From the NCBI GenBank assembly GCA_016207515.1, contig JACQPN010000002.1, positions 12,350 through 76,349 of the forward strand: 64,000 nt of DNA, read 5' to 3'. This DNA comes from Methanobacteriota archaeon (GTDB lineage Archaea > Thermoplasmatota > SW-10-69-26 > JACQPN01). This document shows positions 37,039 to 58,306 of this stretch, one piece after another. Position 1 is the stretch's first letter. Each line of letters starts with the position of its first letter. Under the pieces are notes generated by a model, which ran no database searches, was not told where the DNA came from, and saw nothing but the letters and a program-made list of their open reading frames with translations. The translations under genes and the position numbers were made by a program.

Positions 37039-38187
37039 TTGAATTTGGACCTCGCCTGGAACCCGCTCGGCGCCATCGGCATCGTGGTGGGCGTCCTCGC
37101 TTGCGCCATGGCGGCGCTCGTGTGGAAGGCGCGGGCCGACCGGGCCCAAAACCGCTGGCTCGCGGCCTACCTCTTCGGCAACGGCTTGTACTTCGTCGCC
37201 TACAACGGCCTCCGACTCTTCGCGACCGATCCCCGTGACGCCTACGCGCTCATGGCCTCAGGTTGGTCGGTGAATCTGCTGTCCGTCGGAGGATACTTTG
37301 CCTTCCTCTCTACGTTGGATTCCCCTCTCGTCTCTTGGATGCGAAGGTACCGGATCGTGTGGGCCGTGATGGGCGGCTCTGCCCTGGTCGCGGCATATGT
37401 CGTCGTCCAGCCGGGTGCTTGGTTCCCGGGCGTGCAGCCACTCGGTGGTTTTTCGGGATGGGGCGCAGTCTCCTCCCCGCTTAGAAACCTCGTCCTCCTG
37501 GTCCTCACGGGCCTCTTTATCTTTTCCGCAGCGCCGGCGATCGACGCTTGGCGCCGAGCGAAGACGCCGCTCCTACGTCGCCAAGGTTGGATCTTTGGCG
37601 CCACGTTCGCGACGACATCGCTCGGTTGGGCGGCCTTCATAATATGGTACCTGGCCTCGGGAACGGGCACATTCACGCCGTTTGTCGTGGTCGTCAATTT
37701 CCTGTGGCAGGCCCTGCTTTCGCTTGCCCTCTCCCTTGGCCTTGCGTACGGGATCCTGAAGACCCAACTTTTCGACGTCGACATCAAGCTCAAGTGGACG
37801 TTGCGAAGCGGCACGCTCGCGGGCGCCTTCTTGGGCGTTTTCTTCGTGGCAAGCGAGGCAGCGCAATCGGTACTCTCCGCACAACTCGGTCCCATTGTCG
37901 GGCTCGTCGCAACGGGTGCTCTCGTGTTCGCGTTGGCACCGCTCCAGCGCGCCGCGGACAGGATCGCGGACAAGGCCATGCCGCGCGTTTCGGACGACGC
38001 CGAGTACAGGACGGTGAGAAAGCGCGAGGTGTACGCCGCGGCCGTCGAGAGTGCTCTCGAAGAGGGCGACATACGCCCGAAGGAGCGCGGGATGCTCGCG
38101 ACACTTGCGGACCAGCTTGGGCTAGGTCCGAAGGAGATGCACGAGATCGAGGTTGAGGCGCGTTCGGAAAGAGCGCGGGTGGCGTAG
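37039..38187 (+). CDS. array member A: polytopic membrane protein (~9 TM) with conserved C-terminal module
   Basis: 382 aa, TTG start; seven N-terminal TM helices, then conserved TM hairpin (FFVASEAAQ...ALVFALAPL) and cytoplasmic helical tail. Confidence 0.75.
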   Translation: MNLDLAWNPLGAIGIVVGVLACAMAALVWKARADRAQNRWLAAYLFGNGLYFVAYNGLRLFATDPRDAYALMASGWSVNLLSVGGYFAFLSTLDSPLVSWMRRYRIVWAVMGGSALVAAYVVVQPGAWFPGVQPLGGFSGWGAVSSPLRNLVLLVLTGLFIFSAAPAIDAWRRAKTPLLRRQGWIFGATFATTSLGWAAFIIWYLASGTGTFTPFVVVVNFLWQALLSLALSLGLAYGILKTQLFDVDIKLKWTLRSGTLAGAFLGVFFVASEAAQSVLSAQLGPIVGLVATGALVFALAPLQRAADRIADKAMPRVSDDAEYRTVRKREVYAAAVESALEEGDIRPKERGMLATLADQLGLGPKEMHEIEVEARSERARVA

Positions 38188-38316
38188 ATGCCCCTCTCGC
38201 CGGGTTTCCTCGTCACGCAGGCGACTACCCTCCTTCTCGTCGTGCTGGGCGCGTTCGTCCTGACCGTGCGACCGCGCACGCGTGCGCCGGCTTTCCCGGT
38301 CACGGAGGCGGCCTGA
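38188..38316 (+). CDS. array fragment B1: 42-aa ORF carrying only the family N-terminal TM motif
   Basis: ATG immediately after A stop; LLLVVLGAFVLTVRPRTRAP matches the N-terminal LG...L[RK]PRT motif of C-G; likely gene remnant or split gene. Confidence 0.35.
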   Translation: MPLSPGFLVTQATTLLLVVLGAFVLTVRPRTRAPAFPVTEAA

Positions 38317-38832
38317 GTGCACTTGCTCGACGCCGTGGGGCTCACCGACTCCGTTTCGGTGCTAGTGTTCACTCTCCTGGGCCTTTGGGTCCTTTCGCTT
38401 CGCTGGCGTTCGGCCACGAACATCACGTTCGCCGTCTGCGCGATCGCTTTCTCGGCGGGCATAGTCCCGGTCAATCTTTTCACCGCCCGGACTCACTTGG
38501 ATCCCCCCATATCCGCCGCCGCGGACGTCGTCGCGAAGCGCGCCGTCTCGATCACGCGCGACGGCGATCCCGTCCCGTGCCCCATCCCGACGCTGCCTTG
38601 CGACGCAGCGCCGCGCGGCGCGCCGATCCTGCCCGACGACACCCGATACTCGCTCGTCATCGGCGACTACGTCGCGCTCGGCGGCGACGGATACGACAGG
38701 CTCCCCGACCTCGGTGCGAGCGGCGCGCTCGAAGCGGACGTGCTCATTGAGCACCTCGAGCGCCTCGGCACGGTCGAGCCGCGCGTCGACGGCCGCGTGT
38801 GGCACGTCGCGCGACTTCAGGGGGTGCCCTGA
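38317..38832 (+). pseudogene. array fragment B2: family-like N-terminal TM segment fused in frame to a 5'-nucleotidase C-terminal-domain-like tail
   Basis: GTG after B1 stop; N-terminal TM (LVFTLLGLWVLSLRWRS), C-terminal YSLVIGDYVALGGDGYDRL...VDGRVWHV resembles the 5'-nucleotidase C-terminal domain; no conserved family C-terminal module. Confidence 0.35.
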
Positions 38833-40073
38833 TGCACTTGCTGGGCGAGGCCTGGTTCTCGTGGGTCTCCTTCGTGGTCGCCGATGTGATCCTCGTTGCG
38901 CTCGGCATTCTCGTGCTCCGGCTCAAGCCGCGGACGCCGGCGAGCTGGGCTCTTGGCGTCTTCGCGACCGCCTGGGGAGCCAACTTCATCGTGGCGCTCG
39001 CGCCGTTCTTCTTCGACATCGACCTTTCGAGGCCAGGGTATCTGGAGGGTCAAACCCTTCTTCGCGTCGTCCTGAGAGCCATCTCCGCCGGCGGCCTCGT
39101 GGCGATGATGCTGACCTTCCCGCGGGCCCTGCCGCGAGCCGAGCGCCGCGCCCTCGTCGGGCCCGCGATCTTTGGCGCGGTCTGGGCGTTTGTGCTCATC
39201 GCCCCGCGATGGGCGATCCCACCGTGGGCGCTCCTCGACGTGGGAACCGCGATTGTCGGGTACGGGTTCGTCTGGGCGTACCTGCTGCTTCTCACGTCCC
39301 GGTGGCGGCGCGCGACCGACGCGGGCGAACGGCACCAGATCGTGCTCACGTTCGTGGCGCTCGCGCTGGGCGTCAGTTTCCAAGCGGGACAATACGCGGG
39401 AGGCGCGAGCCAGCTCGCTTCGTCAGGCGTCCTGACGTTCGTGACCCAGCTTGCCCCACCCGTCTGGCTTGCGGTCGTCTGGCTCCGGGGGGCCCACGGG
39501 GCGCAAGCGCGCGTCGAGCGGAATCTCGCCATCCTCCCGCTCGCGCTCGCGTTCGTGGGATTCCTCGTGGGGAGGAGGAGCCCCTACGATCCCTCGGGCC
39601 TCCTCGCCCTTGGCACCGTCGCGATCCTCACCTATGCGATCGTGCGTCACCAAGTCCTCGGCATCGACGTCAAGCTCCGCTTCGCCATCAGCAAGTCCAC
39701 GGTCGCGGCCGTGTTCATCGCGGTTTTCTTCGTCGCGAGCGAAGCGGCGCAGCAGTTCTTCGGCGAAGCGTTCCAATCCAATTACGTGGGCATCCTGGCG
39801 GCGGGTGCTCTCGTGTTCGCGATCGCGCCGTTGTCGCGCCTCGCGGACCGGATCGCGGAGAAGGCGGTGCCGGTTCCCACGGCACCTCCGGAGCCCACGG
39901 GGCTACCTTTTCGCGAAAAGCTCTACCGGGATGCAGCGCGCTACGCGCTCCGAGACGGCACGATGACACGCATCGAGGAGTTGCATCTTGCCCAGCTTGC
40001 CGCCGAGCTCGGGCTGCGCGCGGATCGGGCGGTCGAACTGCGCCATGAGATCGAGGAGGAGATGAGGGCGTGA
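38832..40073 (+). CDS. array member C: polytopic membrane protein with conserved C-terminal module
   Basis: ATG overlapping B2 stop (ATGA); module ISKSTVAAVFIAVFFVASEAAQQFFGEAFQSNYVGILAAGALVFAIAPLSRLADRIAEKAVP plus tail YRDAARYALRDGTMTRIEELHLAQLAAELGL. Confidence 0.8.
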   Translation: MHLLGEAWFSWVSFVVADVILVALGILVLRLKPRTPASWALGVFATAWGANFIVALAPFFFDIDLSRPGYLEGQTLLRVVLRAISAGGLVAMMLTFPRALPRAERRALVGPAIFGAVWAFVLIAPRWAIPPWALLDVGTAIVGYGFVWAYLLLLTSRWRRATDAGERHQIVLTFVALALGVSFQAGQYAGGASQLASSGVLTFVTQLAPPVWLAVVWLRGAHGAQARVERNLAILPLALAFVGFLVGRRSPYDPSGLLALGTVAILTYAIVRHQVLGIDVKLRFAISKSTVAAVFIAVFFVASEAAQQFFGEAFQSNYVGILAAGALVFAIAPLSRLADRIAEKAVPVPTAPPEPTGLPFREKLYRDAARYALRDGTMTRIEELHLAQLAAELGLRADRAVELRHEIEEEMRA

Positions 40074-41356
40074 TCGTTTTCCACACGGAGTGGGACGCGA
40101 TCGTGAACGCGATTACGGCCGCGATCCTCGCGGGGTTCGGAGCCTGGATCTGGGCGCTTCGGCCGCGGACCCGACTCACCCGTATGCTCGCGCTCTTTGC
40201 CGTCGCGCACGGCGTTCTCTACACGTACATCAACTTGGTCGAGGTCCTCCCTGTGGGAGGCCCCGCTTGGATCGCGGATACGCTCCTCCGGGGCGCGCTC
40301 TTCGGGGCCGCCGCGTGGGGTCTGCTCGCGATGGGACGCGAAGTCCTGCGGCCTCTCGGCCCCGGGAGCGATCGTCTCTGGAAGGTCGCCGTCGCGACCG
40401 TCGGGATTCTCGCGGTCGTAATCACGGGCCCGGTGCTTTTTGGCCTCCCCGATTCCTCCCCTCTCGCCTGGGTCGCGATCGCCGCCGAGCTTTTCGGCCT
40501 CGCAACGTTCATTCTCGGATTCACCGCCCTTCCGGTCGTGTTTGTGTGGCTCTACCGGCAGCCCCTCGGGGAGGACGTTGAGCGGACGAGGCGCAACGCC
40601 ATCGTGATGAGCAACGCGCTCGTCCTCTGGCCGGCGCTCTATGGGATTGAGGCCGCGATCGGGGGCGGTATCGGCGGATACCTAGTTCTCATCGGTGTGG
40701 TCGCGCTCGGGCTCCTCTGGCTGGCCAACATCGGAGTCGATCCCCGGACAGCCCGCGAGGCTCGCGACGCGGCGCTTCTCGCCTTCGCCCTGCTCCTCAT
40801 CGGAACCGTCGACAGACTGATCCTCTCCGACGCGCTCGGCTACTCTCGCGCAGAGGGCCCGTTCTATGGAATCGCGCGCCTCCTGACGGTCGTCGCGCTC
40901 TCCTACGCCGTCCTGAAGCACTCCGTGCTCGGCTTCGACGTGAACCTACGCTTTGCAATCAGCAAGTCCACCATCGCCGCCGTCTTCGTCGCCGTCTTCT
41001 TCGTCGCGAGCGAAGCGGCGCAGCAGTTCTTCGGTGAAGCGTTCCAGTCGAGCTACGTGGGCATCCTGACGGCGGGTGCGCTCGTGTTCGCGATCGCGCC
41101 GTTGTCGCGGCTTGCGGACAGGATCGCTGAGAAGGCGGTGCCGATCGCGGAGGGCCGTCCCGCCGCCACGACGGCGAAGGAGGAAGCGTACAAACGCGCG
41201 TTGCGCATCGCGCTGCGGGACCGCAAGCTCACGCGCGAGGAGGACATCCACGTGCACGAGCTCGCGGAGCACCTCGGCATCGGCGCAGGCCGAGCGATGG
41301 CATTGCGTGTAGAGATTGAACGCGAATTGGCCGCATCGACCGGAGGCGGGACTTGA
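40070..41356 (+). CDS. array member D: polytopic membrane protein with conserved C-terminal module
   Basis: GTG overlapping C stop (GTGA); C-terminal module nearly identical to C and E2 at protein and DNA level. Confidence 0.8.
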   Translation: MIVFHTEWDAIVNAITAAILAGFGAWIWALRPRTRLTRMLALFAVAHGVLYTYINLVEVLPVGGPAWIADTLLRGALFGAAAWGLLAMGREVLRPLGPGSDRLWKVAVATVGILAVVITGPVLFGLPDSSPLAWVAIAAELFGLATFILGFTALPVVFVWLYRQPLGEDVERTRRNAIVMSNALVLWPALYGIEAAIGGGIGGYLVLIGVVALGLLWLANIGVDPRTAREARDAALLAFALLLIGTVDRLILSDALGYSRAEGPFYGIARLLTVVALSYAVLKHSVLGFDVNLRFAISKSTIAAVFVAVFFVASEAAQQFFGEAFQSSYVGILTAGALVFAIAPLSRLADRIAEKAVPIAEGRPAATTAKEEAYKRALRIALRDRKLTREEDIHVHELAEHLGIGAGRAMALRVEIERELAASTGGGT

Positions 41357-41595
41357 CGATTCCGCTCGGCCGGATCCTCAACCTCGCCGGGAGCTCGGTG
41401 ATTGTGCTGCTCGGGCTCGCCGTCGCATTCCTTGGCCGAGGACGAGGTCCAGACCTTGGAGTGACTCGGTTCTCCATCGGCATCGGCGGGCTCGCTCTCG
41501 CGAAGCGCCACATGCGCGACCTTGTGGCCACCTGGGCGGGAGAGGACGCAACTGGTCGCGAAGCGGCGCCCGACTTGGAGGCGCGGTCCCCGTGA
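41353..41595 (+). CDS. array fragment E1: 80-aa ORF with family N-terminal TM motif
   Basis: TTG overlapping D stop; LAGSSVIVLLGLAVAFLGRGRG matches the family N-terminus; ends at TGA overlapping the GTG of E2. Confidence 0.4.
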   Translation: MTIPLGRILNLAGSSVIVLLGLAVAFLGRGRGPDLGVTRFSIGIGGLALAKRHMRDLVATWAGEDATGREAAPDLEARSP

Positions 41596-42932
41596 ATCTG
41601 CTCTCCGGGGCCCTCGTGCCCGCCTACGCCGGGACCCTCACAAACCTGCTCCTCGCTGCGGCTCTCCTCAGGTGGGGCCCAAGGCGGGGGGCATCGGTCT
41701 GGTTCGTCGCTTTCCTGGTCGCGGACGGCGTTGGCCTGGCGCTCAACGCAATCGAGAACCACGTCTTCCAGACCTTCGACGCCACCACGTCGAGCGCGTC
41801 AGAGATCGAAGCGACACGGGCGCTACTCACGGGGCTCGATGTCGCCGTGGGCGTTCTGCTCGTCTCTGCCCTGTTCCTGATCGTTTTCGCAACGATCGAA
41901 TTCTTGGGGCGCGCCCCGCGATGGCTGGCACCGGCGGTCCTCGCGACCGCGAGCACGGCGGCGCTCTGGGGGATTCTCGACCCTCCCGCAGGATACTTCC
42001 TCCGCGAGGGCCGCCTCATACACGTCGTCGACTCCTCCTATTTCTTCCTCACAACGCTTCCTGCCTTCGCAAGCCAAGGCGTCGCGCTTCTCGTGCTCGC
42101 GCGGCGACCAGCCGGCGATCCCAGCTCACCCACGCGCCGCTCTCACCTCCTCCTTGGCATCGGTCTCCTCGTGTATCCTCTTCATCGTGGCGCCTATCTT
42201 GTGGTGGACTACTTCCTCGACCCGCTGTCTGTAGCGCGAGTAACTGCCTCCAATCGGTTCGTCCTGCTCGGCGAGCTGGCGACCGCCGTGTTCCTCCTCT
42301 TCGCCGCCTACCTTGCCATCATGCGGCTTGCACGCACACATCCCGAGCACGCGGGCCTCGTTCTCGCGGCCGGCGTGGGCCTCGGCTCCGGGATACTGCG
42401 TGCCCTGACGGATGCGCTCCCGTCCTACTTCTATTTCGGCGTCGCGAACCTCGTGCTGCCGCTCGTCGCTACGTACGCGCTGCTCCGGCACAACCTGTTC
42501 GGTCTCGATTTCAGGGTTCGGTGGGCGATCTCGAAGTCCACGATCGCGGCGGTCTTCATCGCCGTCTTCTTTGTGGCGAGCGAGGCGGCGCAGCAGTTCT
42601 TCGGCGAAGCGTTCCAATCCAATTACGTTGGCATCCTGGCGGCGGGTGCTCTTGTGTTCGCGATCGCACCGTTGTCGCGGCTTGCGGACCGGCTCGCTGA
42701 GAAGGCGGTGCCGGTGGCCGCCGGAACCGGGCCCGTCGAGGCGAGCGCGTCCGACACGCGCGGAGCCGACGCGTACCGACACGCGGTGCGCTTGGCGCTT
42801 CGCGACCGGCGCCTCACGCCCGGTGAAGAGGTCGCTTTGGCGCACGTCGCGCAGGGTCTCGGACTCACGCCTGTTGAGGCCATTCGGCTCCGCCACGAGG
42901 TCGAGGCGGAGACCGGGAAGGAGGTGCGCTAA
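41592..42932 (+). CDS. array member E2: polytopic membrane protein with conserved C-terminal module
   Basis: In-frame part of ORF 41316..42932 starting at GTG 41592; C-terminal module identical over long stretches to C and D. Confidence 0.75.
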   Translation: MNLLSGALVPAYAGTLTNLLLAAALLRWGPRRGASVWFVAFLVADGVGLALNAIENHVFQTFDATTSSASEIEATRALLTGLDVAVGVLLVSALFLIVFATIEFLGRAPRWLAPAVLATASTAALWGILDPPAGYFLREGRLIHVVDSSYFFLTTLPAFASQGVALLVLARRPAGDPSSPTRRSHLLLGIGLLVYPLHRGAYLVVDYFLDPLSVARVTASNRFVLLGELATAVFLLFAAYLAIMRLARTHPEHAGLVLAAGVGLGSGILRALTDALPSYFYFGVANLVLPLVATYALLRHNLFGLDFRVRWAISKSTIAAVFIAVFFVASEAAQQFFGEAFQSNYVGILAAGALVFAIAPLSRLADRLAEKAVPVAAGTGPVEASASDTRGADAYRHAVRLALRDRRLTPGEEVALAHVAQGLGLTPVEAIRLRHEVEAETGKEVR

Positions 42933-42990
42933 ACTGGCTCTCGACGCGCGGTTCGTAATCACCGCAGGAAGCGGCGCGCTATGGGGCCTC

Positions 42991-44166
42991 ATGGGTGTCG
43001 TGATCCTCGCACTCGGCAGGAGCCGACGGGAGAACGTGGCGCTGGGGGCCCTCGCCCTATCGTTTGGTGCGATGTTCGTGTCGAACAACCTCGCCTTCGA
43101 GCCCGGAGCTGACGCGCTCCCAGTCATGTGGGGCTCGGCCCTCTTGGCCGTTGTCGCCGGTCTCGCCGCCCTCGCCGTGGCATGGACGACAGAGGGCCTC
43201 CCACGCGCGCCGGTCGTCGTCGCGGGAGCCGTCGGGGCCGCTTGGCAGCTCCTCGTGCCGATGGGACCCGTGTACGCGGCGGTGAACGCGGCGCGCTTCC
43301 CGCAGCCCGTGGCGGCGGCGTTCTTCACGAACGTCGCGTCTCCGCTTTTCGTCATCGCGTTGGCGCTCCTCATCGGGCTCCTTGCCGCCTTCGCCCTCGC
43401 CCCGAGGAGACTCGCGATGGGTGATCCGCGCCGTCCGCCGCGAAGGCTTCTGATGTACGCGTTCGGCCTCTACCTCGCGTACTCGATGGGCGCCAACGTG
43501 GTCGCGTACGACTTGAGCGGCTATGTCGTACTCTTCCCACTCGTCGTCGCACTTGCGGTGGCGCTGCTCGTCGCTGGCGCCGCGCCGGGCGGGCTGCCCG
43601 AACGTGACGGGGCGCTCGTCATCCTCGCGGCGGGCCTCGCCGGCGCGATCTCCGAGACCTGGGGAGGGGCGACCACGTCGGGCCTTGGCGTCGGCATCCT
43701 CCGCATCGTCGGCGTTGCGGTCCTTGCGTACTCCGTGTTCCGCTACGACCTCCTCGGCGTGCCGCTCCCGCGTATCGCCGAACACCGCGGCAGCCTTGCG
43801 ATGGCCTCGCTGGCCTCGCTCTTCATCGTCGCGCAGATCGCGGAGAACTACCTCAGCGCGGAGTACGGCCTCTTGATGGGTGGCGTGGTGGCGGGCGCGC
43901 TCCTCTTCGCCGCGAACCCCATACAACGGGCGATGGAGAGGACGACCGCTCCGGTCGGGCCCCATCGTGCTCCGGCGACGGTCGAGCGCCGCGAGGAGAG
44001 CGAGCGTGCCTACAGGGTGGCGTTACGCCGCTTCCTCGTTGACGGGGATATCAGCGCGGAGGAGGAGATCGCCTTGGCCCACCTTGCGGATGAGGCGGGC
44101 GTGACGGTGCGGCGAACAATCGAACTCCGCCACGAGGTCGAGCGCGAGTTGGGGAGGCGGGGCTGA
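42991..44166 (+). CDS. array member F: polytopic membrane protein with conserved C-terminal module (start uncertain)
   Basis: First in-frame ATG after E2 stop is 42991; homology to G begins at CTG 42934 (LALDARFVITAGSGALWGL vs VLDLSAASLVRAGSGVLFL), so the start may be non-canonical or lost. Confidence 0.7.
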   Translation: MGVVILALGRSRRENVALGALALSFGAMFVSNNLAFEPGADALPVMWGSALLAVVAGLAALAVAWTTEGLPRAPVVVAGAVGAAWQLLVPMGPVYAAVNAARFPQPVAAAFFTNVASPLFVIALALLIGLLAAFALAPRRLAMGDPRRPPRRLLMYAFGLYLAYSMGANVVAYDLSGYVVLFPLVVALAVALLVAGAAPGGLPERDGALVILAAGLAGAISETWGGATTSGLGVGILRIVGVAVLAYSVFRYDLLGVPLPRIAEHRGSLAMASLASLFIVAQIAENYLSAEYGLLMGGVVAGALLFAANPIQRAMERTTAPVGPHRAPATVERREESERAYRVALRRFLVDGDISAEEEIALAHLADEAGVTVRRTIELRHEVERELGRRG

Positions 44167-45417
44167 TTGGTTCTCGACCTCAGCGCGGCTTCGCTCGTTC
44201 GCGCGGGAAGCGGTGTACTGTTTCTCCTTGTCGGGCTCGCGATGATCGGCCTCGGTCGTCGGAAGCGCGAGAACCTGGCCGTCGGTGTGGCGGCAGTCGC
44301 GTTCGGCCTTGCTTTCGTCGTCAACAACATCGATCCGTCAGGCTCGGTCGTCGCGCAGATCGTGCTTGCCCTGGTTTGCGCCGCCGCGCTCGCCGTGCCG
44401 GTGGCTTCCTCGAAAAGGGCCGCCGCGTTCACGGCATTTGTCGCGCTGTCGCTTGTCGGACTCCTCGCGCTATCGACGCCAGCCCAAGTCGTCGGCTTCG
44501 CGGGAGTTCCCATCCCACCTGAGGCTTGGACGGGTTATTACCAGTCCCTCTTCGGCTACCTCCCAATGGTGGCGGCGGTCCTTGGGTACGCTCTGATGCA
44601 GGCGCTGCGATGCAGTAGCGAGTCGGACGAGTGCAGCGCCCGGGCATCAGCGCTTCTTGTCGCCGGGTGGGGGATCTATCCTGCCTTCCTCACGGGCGGA
44701 CAGGTTGCCATCGTTGCGACGCTTCGGTTCGGGCTGACGCCTCCCGGGCTCGCGACCACGGGCGTCCTTGCCCTCGCCGTCGCGGTCATCGTGGCGATGC
44801 TCCTCTACTCGACGCGCCGCACGAAGAGAGCCCGTAATGTCGCGTGGCTTCTCCTGGCATGCGAACTGGCCGGGATGGTGGATCAGGGCTTGGGCGGGAC
44901 CTATGTCACTCCATGGGTCGGTGTCGCGCGCTCGATTGGTGCGGTGATGATTGCGGTGGCGGTCTTTCGCGAGGCGGCACTAGGTTTTGAACTCGGTCTT
45001 CCGACGATCCGCCGCGGAACGACGGCGACGGTGGTTCTCGCGGGCTTCTTCATCGTCGCCCAGATCGCGCAGAACTTCTTGAGTGATGAGTACGGGCTGG
45101 TGATGGGGGGCGTGGTCGCGGGAGCGCTGCTTTTCGCGGCGAACCCCATCCAGCGCGCGATCGAGAGGGACTGGGCCGACCGTGCGCAAGCCACCACATC
45201 AGCGGCGTTTCCCATGGCAAGGGGGGCGCCGGCCGCCGCGACGGCGAGCAAGGAGGAGGCGTACCGCAACGCGCTGCGTATCGCGCTACGTGACCGCGTC
45301 CTCACGGAAGACGAGGAAGTCCAACTCGCGCATCTTTCCGACGAATTGGGCCTCACGCATAGGCGGGCAAGAGAGATCCGAAACGAGGTGCAGCGCGAGG
45401 CCGGGGCGCGGGAGTAA
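44167..45417 (+). CDS. array member G: polytopic membrane protein with conserved C-terminal module
   Basis: TTG right after F stop; C-terminal module FFIVAQIAQNFLSDEYGLVMGGVVAGALLFAANPIQRAIER plus tail EEAYRNALRIALRDRVLTEDEEVQLAHLSDELGL. Confidence 0.8.
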   Translation: MVLDLSAASLVRAGSGVLFLLVGLAMIGLGRRKRENLAVGVAAVAFGLAFVVNNIDPSGSVVAQIVLALVCAAALAVPVASSKRAAAFTAFVALSLVGLLALSTPAQVVGFAGVPIPPEAWTGYYQSLFGYLPMVAAVLGYALMQALRCSSESDECSARASALLVAGWGIYPAFLTGGQVAIVATLRFGLTPPGLATTGVLALAVAVIVAMLLYSTRRTKRARNVAWLLLACELAGMVDQGLGGTYVTPWVGVARSIGAVMIAVAVFREAALGFELGLPTIRRGTTATVVLAGFFIVAQIAQNFLSDEYGLVMGGVVAGALLFAANPIQRAIERDWADRAQATTSAAFPMARGAPAAATASKEEAYRNALRIALRDRVLTEDEEVQLAHLSDELGLTHRRAREIRNEVQREAGARE

Positions 45418-49589: not shown

Positions 49590-51218
49590 ATGATGGCAGG
49601 AGGACAGCAGGTAATTATCCTAAAGGAAGGCACCCGCCGCGATCGCGGAAAGGGCGCACAGTCGAACAACATCCTCGCAGCTAAGGCTGTTGCAGAAGCG
49701 GTCCGCTCGACACTTGGGCCCAAGGGCATGGACAAGATGCTCGTCGATTCGATGGGCGACGTCGTCATCACGAACGACGGAGCGACGATCCTCAAAGAGA
49801 TCGACGTCGAGCACCCCACGGCGAAGATGATCGTGGAGGTCTCAAAGACCCAGGACGAGCAGTGCGGCGACGGCACGACCACAGCGGTCGTCCTCGCTGG
49901 TGAACTCCTCAAGCAGGCAGAAGACCTCATCGAGGACGTCCACCCGACGCTCATCACGGCCGGCTACAGGCTCGCAGCCGACAAGGCCATCAAGGTCTTG
50001 AACGACATCGCGAAGCCCGTGACGCTCTCCGACACCGCCACCCTAGTGCGCATCGCCCGCACCTCGATGGCGTCGAAGTCGACGAGCACCTACTCCGAGC
50101 ACCTCTCGACGATCGTCGTTGACGCGGTCACCGCGGTCGCAGAGAAGACCGGCAGCGAATGGAAGGTCGACAAGGACAACATCAAGATCGAGAAGAAACA
50201 CGGTGGCTCCATCGAAGACACCGAGCTCATCGAGGGCATAGTCCTCGACAAGGAGAGGGCCAACAGCAGGATGCCCTCGACCGTCGCGAGCCCGAAGATC
50301 GCCCTCATAAACGCCGCCCTCGAGATCAAGAAGACCGAGGTCGACGCGAAGATCGAGATAACGGACCCGAACCAGCTCCAGGCGTTCCTCGACGAGGAAG
50401 AGCACACCATCAAGAAGCTCGTCGACTCCGTCGTCGCGAGCAAGGCCAACGTCGTCTTCTGCCAGAAAGGTATAGACGACCTGGCGCTTCATTACCTCGC
50501 GAAGGCCGGCATCTACGCCGTCAAGTCCGTCAGCGAGAAGGACATGAAGAAGCTCGCAAGAGCGACTGGCGCGAAGATCGTCAACAACCTCAAGGACCTC
50601 ACCTCGAAGGACCTCGGCACCGCCGGGAACGTCGAGGAAAGGAAGATCGCCGATGAGGAGATGACCTTCGTGACGGGCTGCAAGGGTGCGAAGGCCGTGA
50701 CCATCCTGGTCCGCGGCGGCACCGAGCACGTCATCGACGAAGTCGAGAGGAACCTCGACGACGCCATCGGTGTCGTGCGCTCGGCCGTCGAGGACGGAAA
50801 GATCGTCGCCGGTGCAGGTGCCCCGGAGATCGAGGTCGCCCTCGCGCTTCGGAAGTACGCAAGCTCGGTCGGGGGCCGCGAACAGCTCGCCATCGAGCGC
50901 TTCGCATCCGCACTCGAGATAATCCCGAGGACACTCGCGGAGAACGCCGGTCTTGACGCGATAAACGCGCTCGTGGACCTTCGTCAGGCCCACGAGAAGA
51001 AGCAGACCTACGCCGGTCTCGATTTAGACACGGGCAAGGTCGTCGACGCGTGGAAGGCCAACATCCTTGAGCCTCTCCGTGTCAAGACCCAGGCCATCCA
51101 GTCCGCAACCGAGGTCGCGACGATGATCCTAAGGATCGACGACGTGATCGCGGCCAAGGCGTTCACCCCCCCGCCCCCGGGCGCGGGCGGCGAACACGGC
51201 GGGATGGGCGATTACTGA
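49590..51218 (+). CDS. ths: thermosome subunit (group II chaperonin)
   Basis: 542 aa; [34 protein letters not shown]-terminal GGM-like tail. Confidence 0.95.
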
Positions 51219-51822
51219 GCATCGACCCAGGTTCCAAAACCAGGCGGGTTCCGGATGAGGGGCCCGCCATTATTCTTTTTTCTCCCATGATTGATGCCTG
51301 TGAGTGCCCTGAGTGTAGGTCGTGCGGGGGGCGCCCTGAAATAGCCCTGACGTCAATTCATTGTGATTCGCATTCAGAGCCGTTCGTCCGCTTTTCAGGT
51401 CAAGTCCTTCACTTTTGCAAGCCGTGCTTTGCGAATCATCTGACGGCCGTGCAATCACGCTCGTCGATTTGTTGTGCCAACGATTTGGTGCACCTCTCGT
51501 CGCACCGATTCGTCAACGCGAGCGGCGTTGAATATTTTCTCCGCTGACGCTGGTCCGTCTTCGAAAACGTGGCGGAACCCGCTGAAGGATTCGGGTTTTC
51601 CACCTTGGTGGTATGGGAACCTGGGGTGCGGAGTATCGGCATAGAATAGTAACAAGCACGAGGCCCGATCCGTCGCCGTTATTATGTGAAGGTCACCGGC
51701 ATTTCCAGAGCCGAAGGACGGCCATGACGTTTCAAGGGGTGAGGGGTGCAAACGATTTGGTGCCAAAAGGCGCCGTTACAAGCCTTTATGGCTCCCGTCC
51801 AGGTTCAGGTCTCGGTGACCGA

Positions 51823-52149
51823 ATGAACCACTACGTTTTGCTAATGACGCTCGTTGTAGTATGCGCTGGATTTTTGTCGGGGTGCGTGAGCCCAATCAGG
51901 GCTGGTGACCAATTGCCGCTTGGCGGAGGAATGAGTGCCGCGACAATTCCGCAGCCAAATTGTGGCGGCGCTCGATTTGCGGTTGTGGAAACCTTCGAGT
52001 TGGATCATCCAGGGTATCCAATTGAGAGTGTTAACAGTACGCTCAATGGAATGGCCGACAGGGGCTTCGTCCTGATAGCGATGACCGAGGTCGCGGGGGG
52101 GGATGGCTCAGGTCACCATTACTCCATGGTTTTCCAGTGTGCAAGATAG
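51823..52149 (+). CDS. hypothetical small lipoprotein
   Basis: In frame of ORF 51613..52149; MNHYVLLMTLVVVCAGFLSGC signal/lipobox; lies in lower-G+C segment. Confidence 0.35.
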   Translation: MNHYVLLMTLVVVCAGFLSGCVSPIRAGDQLPLGGGMSAATIPQPNCGGARFAVVETFELDHPGYPIESVNSTLNGMADRGFVLIAMTEVAGGDGSGHHYSMVFQCAR

Positions 52150-52300
52150 GCTGCGAGGAACGGCATCTTGCAAGGCCCCAACGGCAACTGGGGTCCTCCA
52201 GCGACACCTTAGCCCCACCGACGCCGTCCAACTCGTCTACCAACTCTACGGCCTCACGGAAGATGAAATCAAGGTCGTAGAGGCCGCCTCATCGCGATGA
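52103..52300 (+). pseudogene. remnant: 3' end of a restriction-modification-type DNA methyltransferase gene
   Basis: C-terminal peptide ...PTDAVQLVYQLYGLTEDEIKVVEAA* resembles the conserved C-terminus (LVYELYGLTEEEI.IVE) of N6-adenine MTases of type IIG RM / BREX PglX type; no upstream catalytic domain present. Confidence 0.4.
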
Positions 52301-52801
52301 GCGGTTCCTGATCGGCGCCCCGCCCACCGTGTACCGTTCGGCATCTCTCGTCTTCGTGACCTTCTTGAGGGTGAACTTCCCGAGGTTGGGAGTGTACGCC
52401 ATCCTGAAGCTCACGTCGAAGAGATGAAACAAGGGTTCTCGACCGATCAACGGGAGCGATGGAAAGCCGGGTTGGTTCAATGGGATTTGGAAGGGCGCTT
52501 CGAATGACTCGCGTCGCCCCGTTTGTTCGAGGGTCACGGTGAGGCGTGCGACACCTATTTCGAAGCTGTTCGCGACCGACATGGCCCGATCGACGGGTAG
52601 TTTTTCCACGTCAATGCCGAGGAGGCCCTCCGCCATTTCTCGGGGGATCATGGAAAAATCCGCTCCCGAATCAAGGAGGAGGTCGGTGAGGAACCTACGA
52701 TTGCCAAGCGCGAGGCGGCATGCCATGACCGGTCTCTGAATGACTCCACCTCGGCCGATGGGGTACGCCTTGAAGGCGTACGAAAAATTCACATCGGCCA
52801 A
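52289..52801 (-). CDS. retropepsin-like aspartic protease (clan AA)
   Basis: 170 aa; DSGAD catalytic motif (LLLDSGADFSMIP). Confidence 0.7.
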   Translation of the reverse strand: MADVNFSYAFKAYPIGRGGVIQRPVMACRLALGNRRFLTDLLLDSGADFSMIPREMAEGLLGIDVEKLPVDRAMSVANSFEIGVARLTVTLEQTGRRESFEAPFQIPLNQPGFPSLPLIGREPLFHLFDVSFRMAYTPNLGKFTLKKVTKTRDAERYTVGGAPIRNRSSR

Positions 52802-52804
52802 AGG

Positions 52805-53014
52805 TTACACCGTGATGTAGCCTTCAGGGACCATCACGACGTAGGGTTCCTTGCCTGGCGCTTTTTCTTGAGTCGCCCGAATGACGTCCTGGAGACTCTT
52901 GTCGACGGCGATAATCTCCTGGTCGACTACGGACACCCACTTTCCAACGAATTGACGGAGGTTCTGTTTCGCGAACCATTCGCTGTTCTTTTCGAGGGAA
53001 CTCTCGTCTTCCAT
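52805..53014 (-). CDS. small DUF5678-like protein paired with the retropepsin-like protease
   Basis: 69 aa; FVGKWVSVVDQEIIAVDKSLQDVI; directly upstream of and co-oriented with the protease. Confidence 0.5.
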   Translation of the reverse strand: MEDESSLEKNSEWFAKQNLRQFVGKWVSVVDQEIIAVDKSLQDVIRATQEKAPGKEPYVVMVPEGYITV

Positions 53015-53188
53015 CGGTGCGTCTCCTGGTGGTGCCCATGGCGGCGACCGTTATATAAGTCTGTTCCCGGAGCCGTTAAACGTTTCCGCGAAGCGCCTTC
53101 CGGGGGCGTCGCGTGCAAGAGAAGGAAAAAAATCGGCGGGTCCGCACGGGAACCCGCCACCAAACTTTTTCTGGCGCCCTTTTCGGTC

Positions 53189-53485
53189 TTAGACGCCGCC
53201 CCGTTTCGTGGTCGTGCGCGCTTCGATGAAGTCGCCGACCCAGACGCCGGCGATGAACAGTATCGTGAGGATCACGATGCTGACTATCGTTCCAGCGACG
53301 TCGTTCGCGAAACCTAGCGGGCTCGTGGAGGTCGTGTAACCGAGCACCGCGAACAGGACGCCGACGACGGCCCCGATGAGGAGGCCCATCTTCAGCATGT
53401 TCGTCTTGTTCTGCGTTCCCGGTGTCCACCAACCGTAGATGAGGCCGCCTAAGAATATCAGGAGGCCCCATGGGAGGTCTGCCAT
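53189..53485 (-). CDS. small membrane protein (3 TM)
   Basis: 98 aa, three hydrophobic helices. Confidence 0.5.
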   Translation of the reverse strand: MADLPWGLLIFLGGLIYGWWTPGTQNKTNMLKMGLLIGAVVGVLFAVLGYTTSTSPLGFANDVAGTIVSIVILTILFIAGVWVGDFIEARTTTKRGGV

Positions 53486-54537: not shown

Positions 54538-54998
54538 GGCCTGGCAGAACGCCTCGATGGAAGTCTGGGAAGGCCGATGGGCGCGTCCGAGCACGCTGTG
54601 AAGGGAATCATCCACTACGCGAAGTCCAGCGGAGGCGGGCACACGGGACACGAAGTCACTGGGGAAGAAGTGTCCACGCTTGGGGTGCCCGAAGCTGCAT
54701 CAAAGGGGGCAGGAGGGCGGCGGCCGTTTGGCGAACTGGGCCGCCGCCCATCCGTTCAAAGTTACGCTGTTGCCGATCCCCCCGAGGAGGTTTTCTGAAT
54801 CTTCGCCACGGCAGATGTGACCAAGGCACGCCCCGTCGGATGAAGAGGCGAAGCGCGTGGACCTGCTGCCGCAGGGGAAAGGCTACCTTTCAAGAGCGCG
54901 CCACCCACGCCGAAGGGCGCCCCTGATGCCTTCTGAGGCCCAGCAAAGGTTAATAAGGGGTTCAGGATTAACCGGGCATGCCCGCCGCGGTGCTCCTT

Positions 54999-55304
54999 AT
55001 GGCCGAGTCCACACCATCTCAAAGTGATTTCACGCGGTTCGAGAAGGCGCGCGTCATTGGTGCCCGTGCACTACAGATCGCGCTCGGCGCTCCGACGCTG
55101 CTTGATACGACCGACTTTGACCCCGTCAGACTCTCGCACATGGAATTCAACGAGGGCATCATCCCGATAACGGTCGTCCGCCAGCCGCGCGTCAGCAAGT
55201 TCCGGCGGCCGGTGCGGGTCGCCCGCACGGGGATCGCGGCCGACCTCGACCTCGTCGAGGAAGATGAGCCGGCGCAGGATTGGCCCGAGGCCGGGGAACA
55301 TTAG
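54999..55304 (+). CDS. rpoK: DNA-directed RNA polymerase subunit K (Rpo6/omega homolog)
   Basis: FEKARVIGARALQIALGAP core motif; acidic C-terminal extension. Confidence 0.8.
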   Translation: MAESTPSQSDFTRFEKARVIGARALQIALGAPTLLDTTDFDPVRLSHMEFNEGIIPITVVRQPRVSKFRRPVRVARTGIAADLDLVEEDEPAQDWPEAGEH

Positions 55305-55955: not shown

Positions 55956-56143
55956 CCGCCGAAACTATCGGCGACCCCCGAATCCAAGGCCTAAATGGCG
56001 CGTTGCCACATCAATAGTGCAACGCGTCCTGACACCCCATGGTTTCCACTCCAATAACGGGTAACGACTTTCTCCTTACGGAGTGAGCCGGCCACAAGTT
56101 TGCGTTGCTCGTGCAGGTTCATCAGGAAGCGCACCCTACTCCC

Positions 56144-58306
56144 ATGCCCCGACGACGAAACGAGGAGGTGACCGATACGCCCGAAGCGAGGACCCAATTC
56201 AGTGAATCGCAGCTCACGCAAAGCTGGGAACGCTTCCTGCGAAAGTACGCCAAAGCGCTCATCAACGAAGCGGTCCAGGAATACCCGCAGAAAAGGAGCA
56301 TCACCGTCCGCTTCCTCGACATCGACCGTCACGACCACGAACTCGCCGAGTACCTGATAAAACACCCCTACCACGCCATCCGAGCGGCCGAGGCGGCGCT
56401 CAAGGCGATGGACGCGCCGTGGCTCACAGAAGAGCGGCCCAGCCTCCGTTTCCGCTTCGAAGGCCTCCCCGACAGTTACAAGATAGGCATCCGGAGCCTC
56501 AGGGCGGAGGACCTCGGGAAAGTAGTGGCGCTCGAAGGCATCATCAAGAGAACGACGGAGGTCAGGCCGAGGCTCGAAGACGCGATCTTCGAATGCCTTC
56601 GATGCAAGGCCAACATCAAGGTGTCGCAAGACGAGCATCTGACCTTCAAGGAGCCTTACGAGTGCTTCGAGGAACAAGGCGGGTGCGGCAGGTCGCCCGG
56701 CTTCAAGCTCATACAGGAGTCGTCACGTTTCATCGACCAGCAGCGCATCGAAGTGCAAGAGGGCTTCGACAAGCTGCGAGGCGGCGACCAGCCCCAGAAG
56801 ATAAACGTCTATTGCGAAGAGGATCTCGTGGGCCGCTTCTCGCCCGGCGACAGGGTCGTGGCCAACGGCATCTTGAGAAGCAGCCAACGGAAAGTCGGCG
56901 GAGCGAAGTCCACCGTGTTCGACCTCCACGTCGAAGGCATCAGCATCGAGCGCTCCCGCGAGGAGTACGAGGACGTGAAGATCTCCCCCGAGGACGAGGT
57001 GGCGATCGAACGGTTGGCCCAGGACCCGGAGCTTTACACCAAGATGATCGACAGCATGGCCCCCTCCATCTACGGCATGAGAGAAGAGAAGGAGGCGCTC
57101 GTCTTGCAACTGTACGGCGGGGTCGCGAAGAAACTGCCCGACGGGAACCGTTTGAGGGGCGACATCCACATCCTTCTTGTAGGCGACCCCGGTGTCGCAA
57201 AGTCGCAGCTTCTCCGGTACGCCTCGTCGCTTGCGCCGCGTGGCATCTACACGTCCGGAAAATCAAGCAGTGCGGCAGGGCTCACCGCGGCGGCGGTGCG
57301 CGACGAACAGGACGGGCGATGGGCGCTTGAGGCCGGGGCGCTGGTGCTTGCCGACGGCGGCATAGCGTGCATCGACGAGATGGACAAGATGGAGGAGACC
57401 GACACTTCCTCGATGCACGAGGCCATGGAGCAGCAGACGATCAGTGTCGCCAAGGCCGGGATAACCGCGCAGCTCCAATCGCGGTGTTCCATCCTCGGGG
57501 CGGCAAACCCCAAGCTCGGGCGCTTCGACCCGTTCAAGAACATCGCGGAACAGATCGACATGGATCCTCCGCTTCTTTCGAGGTTCGATGTCATCTTCCC
57601 GCTCACGGACAAGCCCGAACCGAAACGCGACACGGCGCTCGCAGCGCACGTCTTGTCGACGCACCGCGCCGGTGAGATAGTGGAGTACAGGAAGGGAAAG
57701 CCCGAAGGTGCCTACAGCGAAGCGGACGAGGAGCGTGCATTGTTAAGGGCAAAACCGCCGATCGAACGCGGTTTCCTTAGGAAATACGTCGCCCACGCGA
57801 AGAAAAGTTGTTTTCCGGTCATGCAGGAGGAGGCGCTCGAACGGATCCGTGACTACTACGTGAACCTCCGTCGCCAAGCGGGTGCGGAGGCCGGCGAGCG
57901 CGGCCCCGTGCCGATGACGCCTCGCCAGCTGGAGGCCATCGTGCGTCTTGCCGAATCCTCGGCGCGCGTGCGTCTTTCAAACGAGGTCCGGATCCAGGAC
58001 GTGGACAGGGCCATCGGTATCGTAGAGTATTATCTGCGCAAGGTCTCCGGCGGGACCGGTGTGATGGACATCGACGTCATAGCGACCGGTATCAGCCACG
58101 ACCAGCGGGAACGCATCAACATCGTGACAGAGATCATCCGTAGCCTCGAAGTCGGGCGAGACGGTGCTCCCTTCACGGAAGTGATCGCCGAGGCGGAAAG
58201 GCGTGGGATCCCCGTGGACAAGGCGCGAGAGACCGTTCTTCGGCTCAAGGAGCAGGGACGCATCTACGAGCCAAGAAGCGACCACTTCAGGCTAACGCAC
58301 GGTTGA
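56144..58306 (+). CDS. mcm: MCM replicative helicase
   Basis: N-terminal Zn-finger (CLRC...C...C), Walker A (GDPGVAKSQ), Walker B (CIDEMDKM), arginine finger region, C-terminal wH. Confidence 0.95.
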   Translation: MPRRRNEEVTDTPEARTQFSESQLTQSWERFLRKYAKALINEAVQEYPQKRSITVRFLDIDRHDHELAEYLIKHPYHAIRAAEAALKAMDAPWLTEERPSLRFRFEGLPDSYKIGIRSLRAEDLGKVVALEGIIKRTTEVRPRLEDAIFECLRCKANIKVSQDEHLTFKEPYECFEEQGGCGRSPGFKLIQESSRFIDQQRIEVQEGFDKLRGGDQPQKINVYCEEDLVGRFSPGDRVVANGILRSSQRKVGGAKSTVFDLHVEGISIERSREEYEDVKISPEDEVAIERLAQDPELYTKMIDSMAPSIYGMREEKEALVLQLYGGVAKKLPDGNRLRGDIHILLVGDPGVAKSQLLRYASSLAPRGIYTSGKSSSAAGLTAAAVRDEQDGRWALEAGALVLADGGIACIDEMDKMEETDTSSMHEAMEQQTISVAKAGITAQLQSRCSILGAANPKLGRFDPFKNIAEQIDMDPPLLSRFDVIFPLTDKPEPKRDTALAAHVLSTHRAGEIVEYRKGKPEGAYSEADEERALLRAKPPIERGFLRKYVAHAKKSCFPVMQEEALERIRDYYVNLRRQAGAEAGERGPVPMTPRQLEAIVRLAESSARVRLSNEVRIQDVDRAIGIVEYYLRKVSGGTGVMDIDVIATGISHDQRERINIVTEIIRSLEVGRDGAPFTEVIAEAERRGIPVDKARETVLRLKEQGRIYEPRSDHFRLTHG

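Follow-up and report, generated by a model that had tools for sequence, protein, structure and literature searches.

Few enzymes in virology have been studied as thoroughly as the retropepsins; to our knowledge, their prokaryotic relatives are almost uncharacterized and the archaeal ones wholly so. The window, by which we mean the whole stretch of 64,000 nucleotides analyzed here, carries a candidate enzyme of this kind directly behind a small co-oriented gene, which raises the question of whether the two genes form a unit and what the small protein would do to the protease. A sequence-only reading of the window had pointed out a 170-aa protein with a DSGAD motif and, ahead of it, a 69-aa ORF with a FVGKWV..VD pattern, said to be reminiscent of small proteins found next to such proteases in archaea. 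The present data solidly support a conserved functional unit of a retropepsin and a partner of the Pfam family DUF5678, and we infer a mechanism in which the partner gates the enzyme.

The gene pair and its setting in the window

Both ORFs were found on the minus strand at the coordinates given by the sequence-only reading, the smaller one upstream of the protease gene and in the same orientation (Table 1). DSGAD corresponds to residues 44-48 of the 170-aa protein, and the pattern of the partner reads FVGKWVSVVD at residues 22-31. The junction of the two genes is TAA-CCT-TTG with both ORFs in one frame, and its tightness suggests translational coupling of partner and protease. The TTG start is backed by the conserved N-terminus MADVNFSY and recurs in close relatives, one of which (L006) has the same stop-CCN-TTG junction. 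These results bear on the annotation, since GenBank labels both genes 'hypothetical protein'. The exact NCBI protein match for the partner is MBI4392329.1, and the GenBank protease (MBI4392328.1 / HY556_00825) is a protein of 145 aa that begins at an internal ATG, 25 codons late, and drops 25 residues kept in the homologues.

Table 1 Positions of the cassette, its putative signals and its neighbors in the window
Feature	Position	Strand	Details
Thermosome gene	49590-51218		archaeal neighbor
Restriction-methylase remnant ORF (putative)	52103-52300	+	convergent overlap with the 3' end of the cassette
Retropepsin-like aspartic protease gene	52289..52801	-	ORF, TTG start, 170 aa, pI 9.83 (basic)
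Spacer CCT	52802..52804	-	3 nt, between partner TAA stop and protease TTG start
DUF5678 partner gene	52805..53014	-	ORF, ATG start, 69 aa, pI 4.64 (acidic); GenBank MBI4392329.1 / HY556_00830
Shine-Dalgarno-like GGAG	53023-53026	-	8 nt before partner ATG; read from sequence
TATA-box-like element TTATATAA	53051..53058	-	archaeal type, ~40 nt upstream of partner ATG; read from sequence
Terminator-like hairpin	53124..53159	-	G+C-rich, 10 pairs, then ATTTTTTT; terminator scan
Membrane protein gene	53189-53485	-	98 aa; upstream neighbor of the cassette
Rpb6-type RNA polymerase subunit gene	54978-55304		archaeal neighbor
MCM gene	56105-58306		archaeal neighbor

The window is archaeal, as seen from its thermosome, Rpb6-type RNA polymerase subunit and MCM genes. 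Upstream of the partner gene, TTATATAA together with GGAG likely represents the cassette's own promoter and expression signals, both elements being read from the sequence. The hairpin with its T-run is a predicted terminator that ends the upstream membrane-protein gene, and it is the putative upstream boundary of the cassette transcription unit. At the other end, the last 32 residues of the convergent ORF could be aligned with the C-terminal 34 positions of a model for Type IIG restriction methylases (E 1.3e-4), and this ORF is a predicted remnant of a restriction-methylase gene of roughly 1,000 aa.

The pair therefore lies between a restriction-modification gene remnant and a small membrane protein, as had been proposed. 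The further suggestion that it belongs to the same acquired segment is plausible. In its favor, the pair is poorer in G+C than the window (56.7% against 63.0%), its GC3 of 0.69-0.71 falls below the 0.78-0.85 of neighboring core genes (thermosome, MCM, radical-SAM), the restriction-methylase remnant is adjacent, and the cassette has unrelated flanks elsewhere. Against it, no insertion boundaries were found, the low-G+C stretch being surrounded by just short, weak repeats, and the window contains no tRNA gene and no Rfam family. Because neither these nor a convincing flanking repeat were found, the evidence for an acquired segment is that of composition and context. From this it is plausible that the cassette was horizontally acquired in the archaeon.

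A retropepsin-like protease and its DUF5678 partner

The profile searches that had been proposed for both ORFs passed the Pfam thresholds. For the 170-aa protein the pass was marginal (Asp_protease_2, PF13650; 25.1 bits against a gathering cut-off of 24.3), and the clan AA models gag-asp_proteas and RVP matched below their cut-offs. NCBIfam gave no call for either protein of the pair. When PDB sequences were searched with a profile of the window protease and its ten closest relatives, almost solely retropepsins were retrieved (HTLV-1, RSV/AMV, EIAV and FIV proteases, Rickettsia APRc, and Ddi1), with E-values that were marginal for single matches (best 0.014). In this search, LLLDSGADFSM was aligned with LLDTGADMTVI of HTLV-1 protease and LLDSGADITII of RSV/AMV protease. 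An AlphaFold model of the protease was built with the alignment of its relatives (pLDDT 85.5, pTM 0.77). The top 10 Foldseek matches of this model in the PDB were all retropepsins (APRc, FIV, RSV, EIAV; E 9e-5 to 1.6e-3), followed further down by pepsin-type lobes and Ddi1 (4rgh, 5yq8, 7d66). Thus, the DSG motif, on which the sequence-only reading had staked its assignment, aligned with the retropepsin catalytic site, and the fold agreed.

In an alignment of 63 members, D44, G46 and R121 were invariant, and S45, A47, D48 and G120 were at least 90% conserved, which indicates that the catalytic motif and a Gly-Arg signature are under selection. The latter belongs to a second signature, L118-I-G120-R121-E-P, of which G120 and R121 were invariant in the 20 closest relatives. 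Judging from the order of elements in the AlphaFold model, its LIGR probably occupies the position of the retroviral IIGRN, and we take it to be equivalent to IIGRN of HIV-1 protease. By its sequence and its model, the 170-aa protein is a retropepsin-type aspartic protease with an intact predicted active site.

The window protease gave no match at E<1 to TIGR03698 (clan_AA_DTGF) or TIGR02281 (clan_AA_DTGA), and distant members of the family scored 18-28 bits against these models, for which the curated cut-offs are ~57 bits. The family thus forms a subfamily of its own among prokaryotic clan AA peptidases. COG3577/COG5550, TIGR02281 and TIGR03698 (AF_0612 type) comprise small (~120-140 aa) retropepsin-like proteins that stand alone in bacteria and archaea, and the DUF5678 partner sets the window subfamily apart from the TIGR02281 and TIGR03698 types. 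The single-domain clan AA peptidases of COG3577/COG5550 have been catalogued, and little is known of them (PMC2642776). When 1.84 billion representative proteins were searched exhaustively with a profile, 2,742 clusters (50% identity) passed E<=1e-3, while E<=1e-10 left 281 and E<=1e-30 left 18; the wider protease family is sizeable and the window's own subfamily is small.

Among known enzymes, APRc of Rickettsia conorii (RC1339, 'ApRick'; 5c9f, 5c9d) was the best structural match of the protease model (Foldseek E 9e-5, TM to target 0.64-0.72), although the identity was just 15-17%. Both are single-lobe prokaryotic clan AA enzymes with a D-[ST]-G-A active site. The Rickettsia enzyme is anchored in a membrane and works at the cell surface, whereas the window protease has no membrane or signal segment and carries extra N- and C-terminal strands. 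A DUF5678 companion is a feature of the window protease and not a described feature of APRc. Characterized prokaryotic examples are few: APRc, an active retropepsin-like enzyme (PMC4140852), and secreted retropepsin-like enzymes of Pseudomonas (PMC11957051). The small retropepsin 'Asp_prot' found at some CRISPR loci of Sulfolobales (PMC3973734) has ~100 aa and is a different protein in a different context from the window protease.

The 69-aa partner matched Pfam DUF5678 (PF18929) over profile positions 3-48 of 49 with 47.5 bits against a cut-off of 23.2 (E 1.6e-12). The small archaeal proteins mentioned in the sequence-only reading can now be given this family name. The AlphaFold model of the partner (pLDDT 85.4) has the order helix-helix-strand-strand-helix-strand and ends in a conserved, flexible C-terminal tail, VPEGxxTV, in which P63 is invariant and the model confidence is lower over the last residues. 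It superposed on predicted Pandoravirus DUF5678 structures with a TM of 0.72 in a viral structure library, where some phage entries contain DUF5678 proteins as well. No fold or sequence relative of the partner was found in the PDB, no DNA-binding fold or domain was detected by Pfam or by PDB fold and sequence searches, and DUF5678 gave no significant beta-grasp or ubiquitin-like match. Matches to SNaCT7 (weak, Pfam) and Gar1 (NCBIfam) were dismissed as noise.

A word-indexed search with the partner returned itself and already known partners only. Reverse linkage was sampled by a metagenome scan seeded with a 4-sequence DUF5678 alignment, which gave three loci: an intact pair, a pair with a frameshifted protease (L043) and a solo DUF5678 (L042). 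Since DUF5678 also occurs in the Pandoravirus and phage entries and alone at L042, the domain is not exclusively a protease accessory.

Linkage, fusion and co-divergence of the two parts

We compared the neighborhoods of the protease genes in other genomes. The close set comprised ten matches, one of which (P0001) is the window's own protein, and genomic context was recovered for 7 of the 9 homologues from other sources. DUF5678 was located directly upstream and on the same strand in all 7 of these metagenomic loci (L001-L007). It was called as a gene in five (L001-L004, L007), was present as a frameshifted copy in L005, and was represented in L006, at the contig edge, by its last 17 codons alone. 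The other neighbors differed among the close loci and included ribosomal proteins S27e and S24e, an agmatine-deiminase-type cluster and a ParB-like gene.

A wider set came from GTDB species-representative genomes, in which a 20-sequence protease alignment detected 34 loci and an 11-sequence alignment none. A local HMM search found DUF5678 in 31 of the 34, and at two others (L028, L041) a small, divergent look-alike ORF with the DUF5678 pattern lies directly upstream of the protease. Counting both kinds, DUF5678 is directly upstream of the protease or fused to it in 33 of the 34 loci. The exception (L030) is an N-terminally truncated protease remnant next to chlN; intact copies in two other Nostocales cyanobacteria also adjoin chlN. 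The partner was upstream even in a distant relative with ~25% identity to the window protease (P0050) and in a still more distant one (P0121), where its gene had previously been uncalled. The neighborhood analysis proposed in the sequence-only reading thus revealed the pair to be linked elsewhere as well, and the DUF5678-protease partnership holds in essentially every comparable locus. In public data, the clade so delimited amounts to some 280 to 2,700 clusters of proteins (50% identity); at nearly every locus examined the partner accompanies it, and the orphan family DUF5678 thereby gains a first functional context.

The two parts occur either as separate genes or as one. The split form was found in Thermoplasmata-type MAGs, Micrarchaeota, Nanohaloarchaeota, Saccharibacteria, Chloroflexota and Acidobacteriota, with intergenic gaps of -32 to +24 nt at the 23 split loci with an assignable protease start. 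The fused form is one ORF of ~200 aa at 19 bacterial loci, 17 of which belong to filamentous or other cyanobacteria or to giant sulfur bacteria (Thiomargarita, Parabeggiatoa, Marithrix); the remaining two are labeled just Gammaproteobacteria and Pseudomonadota. Another fused protein (P0096) has an added N-terminal membrane helix. The fused and split forms are colinear, and no extra linker intervenes in the former: the DUF5678 tail, ...VP[EG]...I.[VP], runs directly into the first strand of the protease, V[NR][FL]..., and the join is the exact site of the archaeal stop and start. Because of this coincidence, DUF5678 can be regarded as an N-terminal domain of the protease that is encoded here as a subunit of its own. 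Such a natural split/fused pair offers a way to study how an N-terminal flanking domain controls retropepsin dimerization.

An all-against-all comparison of flanking ORFs yielded no third conserved gene. The flanks were unrelated between loci and consisted mostly of housekeeping genes. The distances of the two parts were strongly correlated (Mantel r 0.83 for 40 loci and 0.76 for the 21 split pairs only), and none of 2000 permutations reached the observed value in either case. On this evidence, the two parts travel together through inheritance and transfer, with no swapping of partners. It was shown that the cassette is autonomous, lies in unrelated genomic contexts and moves between genomes as a unit, and one MAG carries two copies of it (L016, L027). 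PADLOC and PHROGs gave no match for either protein, and no relatives were found in IMG/VR, among PLSDB plasmids or in GenBank phages. The latter results lend no support to an origin from plasmids or viruses.

Each part belongs to an existing Pfam family and is thus of a known kind. Full-text searches turned up DUF5678 in one incidental mention only, and in the literature searched no paper connected retropepsin-like proteases with antitoxins or with DUF5678. The obligate split-or-fused partnership and its cassette-like behavior appear to be undescribed.

Possible roles of the DUF5678 partner

On balance, we lean toward the view that the locus is one self-contained operon for a two-part cytoplasmic protease, in which DUF5678 is a regulatory, probably inhibitory subunit that gates the retropepsin. 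The retropepsin would work as a homodimer to which each chain contributes D44 of DSGAD, as in other retropepsins. From the shared mRNA the partner would be made first, and the protease would then be translated from the weak TTG start 3 nt past the partner stop. DUF5678 would dock on the N-terminal beta-strands of the protease and gate dimerization or access to the active site, holding the enzyme in a latent state that would end with release or degradation of the partner. The dimer interface of retropepsins is formed by their N-terminal strand, and retroviral proteases are restrained at low activity before processing by the sequence that flanks their N-terminus; a gate on dimerization or active-site access is therefore the most likely action of DUF5678. 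Physical binding of the two proteins is presumed in this scheme, and the inhibitory direction is suggested by analogy with these enzymes. The contrast between the acidic partner (pI 4.64) and the basic protease (pI 9.83), the partner-first order and the weak coupled start are hints that fit a partner in excess over a potentially dangerous enzyme. However, a DUF5678 that activates or targets the protease, or serves as its substrate, would be just as compatible with fusion and linkage. That DUF5678 binds and gates the protease is a concrete hypothesis that is cheap to examine.

A stronger version of inhibition, which we consider unlikely but deserving of attention, is a toxin-antitoxin (TA) or abortive-infection-type module, in which the retropepsin would be a toxin that cleaves essential proteins and DUF5678 a labile antitoxin. 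Loss of DUF5678 through stress, infection or loss of the cassette would then unleash the protease. Like type II TA modules, the cassette consists of two small, adjacent, co-directional and coupled genes, of which the first encodes an acidic partner and the second, starting from a weak TTG, a basic effector; the two abut closely or overlap. It also resembles them in its patchy phyletic spread as an autonomous unit in unrelated contexts with no third conserved gene, and in the co-divergence of its two parts. The presence of two copies in one MAG and the enrichment of the family in filamentous cyanobacteria and giant sulfur bacteria agree with such a module. So does the decay of the cassette, which is consistent with the effector being lost first (the frameshifted protease of L043, the solo DUF5678 of L042 and the protease remnant of L030), although these are very few cases. 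In contrast to type II systems, neither protein matched a known toxin or antitoxin family or a PADLOC defense/TA model, no DNA-binding antitoxin fold was detected in the partner, and no copies turned up in the searches of plasmids, phages and IMG/VR contigs. The surroundings of many loci are housekeeping genes and not defense islands, and the fused form, unusual for classical type II systems, is common here. No known TA toxin that is a retropepsin was found in the literature. If the protease is toxic and the partner protective, the pair would add a new effector chemistry to TA and defense biology.

A broader proposal can be made tentatively, namely that the cassette represents a new mobile two-component class composed of a latent retropepsin and a DUF5678 inhibitor or sensor, similar to TA or abortive-infection systems and existing also as a fused, self-inhibited zymogen. 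The class would be split in archaea, candidate-phyla-radiation bacteria (CPR) and Chloroflexota, and would take the fused zymogen form in filamentous cyanobacteria and giant sulfur bacteria.

It is rather improbable that DUF5678 is instead an adaptor that recruits substrates, in the style of the ubiquitin-like domain of Ddi1, or a substrate or precursor of the protease, in the style of pro-sigma-E and SpoIIGA. Ddi1 is a eukaryotic protein with a ubiquitin-like domain, a retroviral-protease-like domain and further domains, and SpoIIGA processes pro-sigma-E, both being products of one operon. Linkage, fusion and co-divergence fit these roles equally well. As in Ddi1, a small non-catalytic N-terminal domain precedes the retropepsin domain in the fused forms, so that DUF5678 takes the position of the ubiquitin-like domain; Ddi1 protease domains were among the fold matches, and the flexible partner tail VPEGxxTV could sit in the substrate cleft. 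However, DUF5678 showed no significant match to beta-grasp or ubiquitin-like folds, which speaks against an adaptor. As for a precursor, DUF5678 has neither a DNA-binding or sigma-like region nor a variable core peptide, and the split partner already ends at the junction, where processing would be unneeded.

The retroviral proteases (HTLV-1, RSV/AMV, FIV, EIAV, HIV-1; MEROPS A2) share the DSGAD/DTGAD motif and the fold with the window protease, and the fused bacterial forms resemble Gag-Pro in that another domain precedes the protease. Unlike retroviruses, the cassette has no reverse transcriptase, integrase or long terminal repeats, and the partner is unrelated to Gag; nor does it behave as a retroelement Gag-Pro, there being no third conserved gene and no constant relation between the ORF frames. 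A Gag-Pro-like expression, in which the in-frame TAA is sometimes read through in the gammaretroviral manner to give a self-processing DUF5678-protease fusion, is very improbable: the one frame and the separation by a stop plus one codon in the window and L006, as well as the natural fusions in bacteria, would fit it, but programmed readthrough was rejected, since the relative frame of the two ORFs varies between loci (they are out of frame in L001-L004 and L007, and most gaps or overlaps at the other split loci are not divisible by 3), and both a start codon and an N-terminus proper to the protease are conserved. The two in-frame cases agree with the one-in-three expectation by chance.

Start of the protease gene and a distant gene pair

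The retropepsin-like protease of the window is annotated in GenBank (MBI4392328.1, HY556_00825) as a protein of 145 aa that begins at an internal ATG. This call leaves out the conserved N-terminus that is read from the TTG start (MADVNFSY...; window 52727-52801, minus strand). Several homologues (P0001, the window's own entry, as well as P0007 and P0009) were likewise shortened by metagenome gene callers. At two distant loci, L048 and L049, the DUF5678 gene is overlapped by the protease start as annotated, and the opening peptides of the two ORFs are near-identical (MTITLKYSK in the DUF5678 ORF versus MAITLKYSK in the protease). The DUF5678-protease junction at these loci may have undergone a local duplication.

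Surroundings of the cassette in the window

A short ORF runs convergently into the protease gene and overlaps its 3' end; the final 32 residues of this ORF (...LSPTDAVQLVYQLYGLTEDEIKVVE...) align to the extreme C-terminal 34 positions of Type IIG restriction-methylase models from PADLOC (E 1.3e-4). The ORF is a leftover of a gene of ~1,000 aa. A stretch of ~600 nt (51219-51820) carries an 18-nt direct repeat (94% identical, at 51474 and 51746) and a 17-nt inverted repeat (88% complementary, at 51226 and 51609); it gave no match to Rfam and no tRNA. The adjacent 108-aa ORF, which matched no Pfam family, shares one low-G+C stretch with the cassette. The top G+C of the window (0.66-0.70) is found at 38001-45000, where the AT skew is strongly negative (-0.19 to -0.28) except in the 41001-42000 bin (-0.09).

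Features of the window and cassette loci of other genomes (each in its own coordinates)
Feature	Location	Strand	Description
Type IIG restriction-methylase-like ORF	window 52103-52300, mainly 52196-52291	+	short; PADLOC model match
Stretch of ~600 nt	window 51219-51820		no convincing gene; between thermosome gene and small lipoprotein-like ORF
108-aa ORF	window 51823-52149	+	signal-peptide and lipobox-like N-terminus (MNHYVLLMTLVVVCAGFLSGC...)
L048, L049	2131-2571 and 2501-2992 (same in both)		distant DUF5678-protease pair; DUF5678 ORF uncalled
L005	1226-2076		decayed; DUF5678 and protease both frameshifted
L043	2474-3163		decayed; DUF5678 intact, protease frameshifted
L030	1883-2257		decayed; protease N-terminally truncated, syntenic site
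L042	304-495		decayed; DUF5678 solo
L019	4677-4868		decayed; DUF5678 fragment, 1.4 kb from full fused copy

Multiple copies and viral counterparts

Besides the decayed cassettes, two separate fused DUF5678-protease copies (L016 and L027) were found in one MAG of Candidatus Parabeggiatoa sp. nov. 3 (QNEL01), which indicates that giant sulfur bacteria carry multiple copies of the cassette per genome. The AlphaFold model of the window DUF5678 superposes on predicted proteins of giant viruses and phages in BFVD, namely those of Pandoravirus (A0A2U7UD66, A0A2U7UG46, S4VV29) and Siphoviridae (A0A8S5LJB2), with TM to the query of at most 0.74. The DUF5678 fold is thus present in viruses too.
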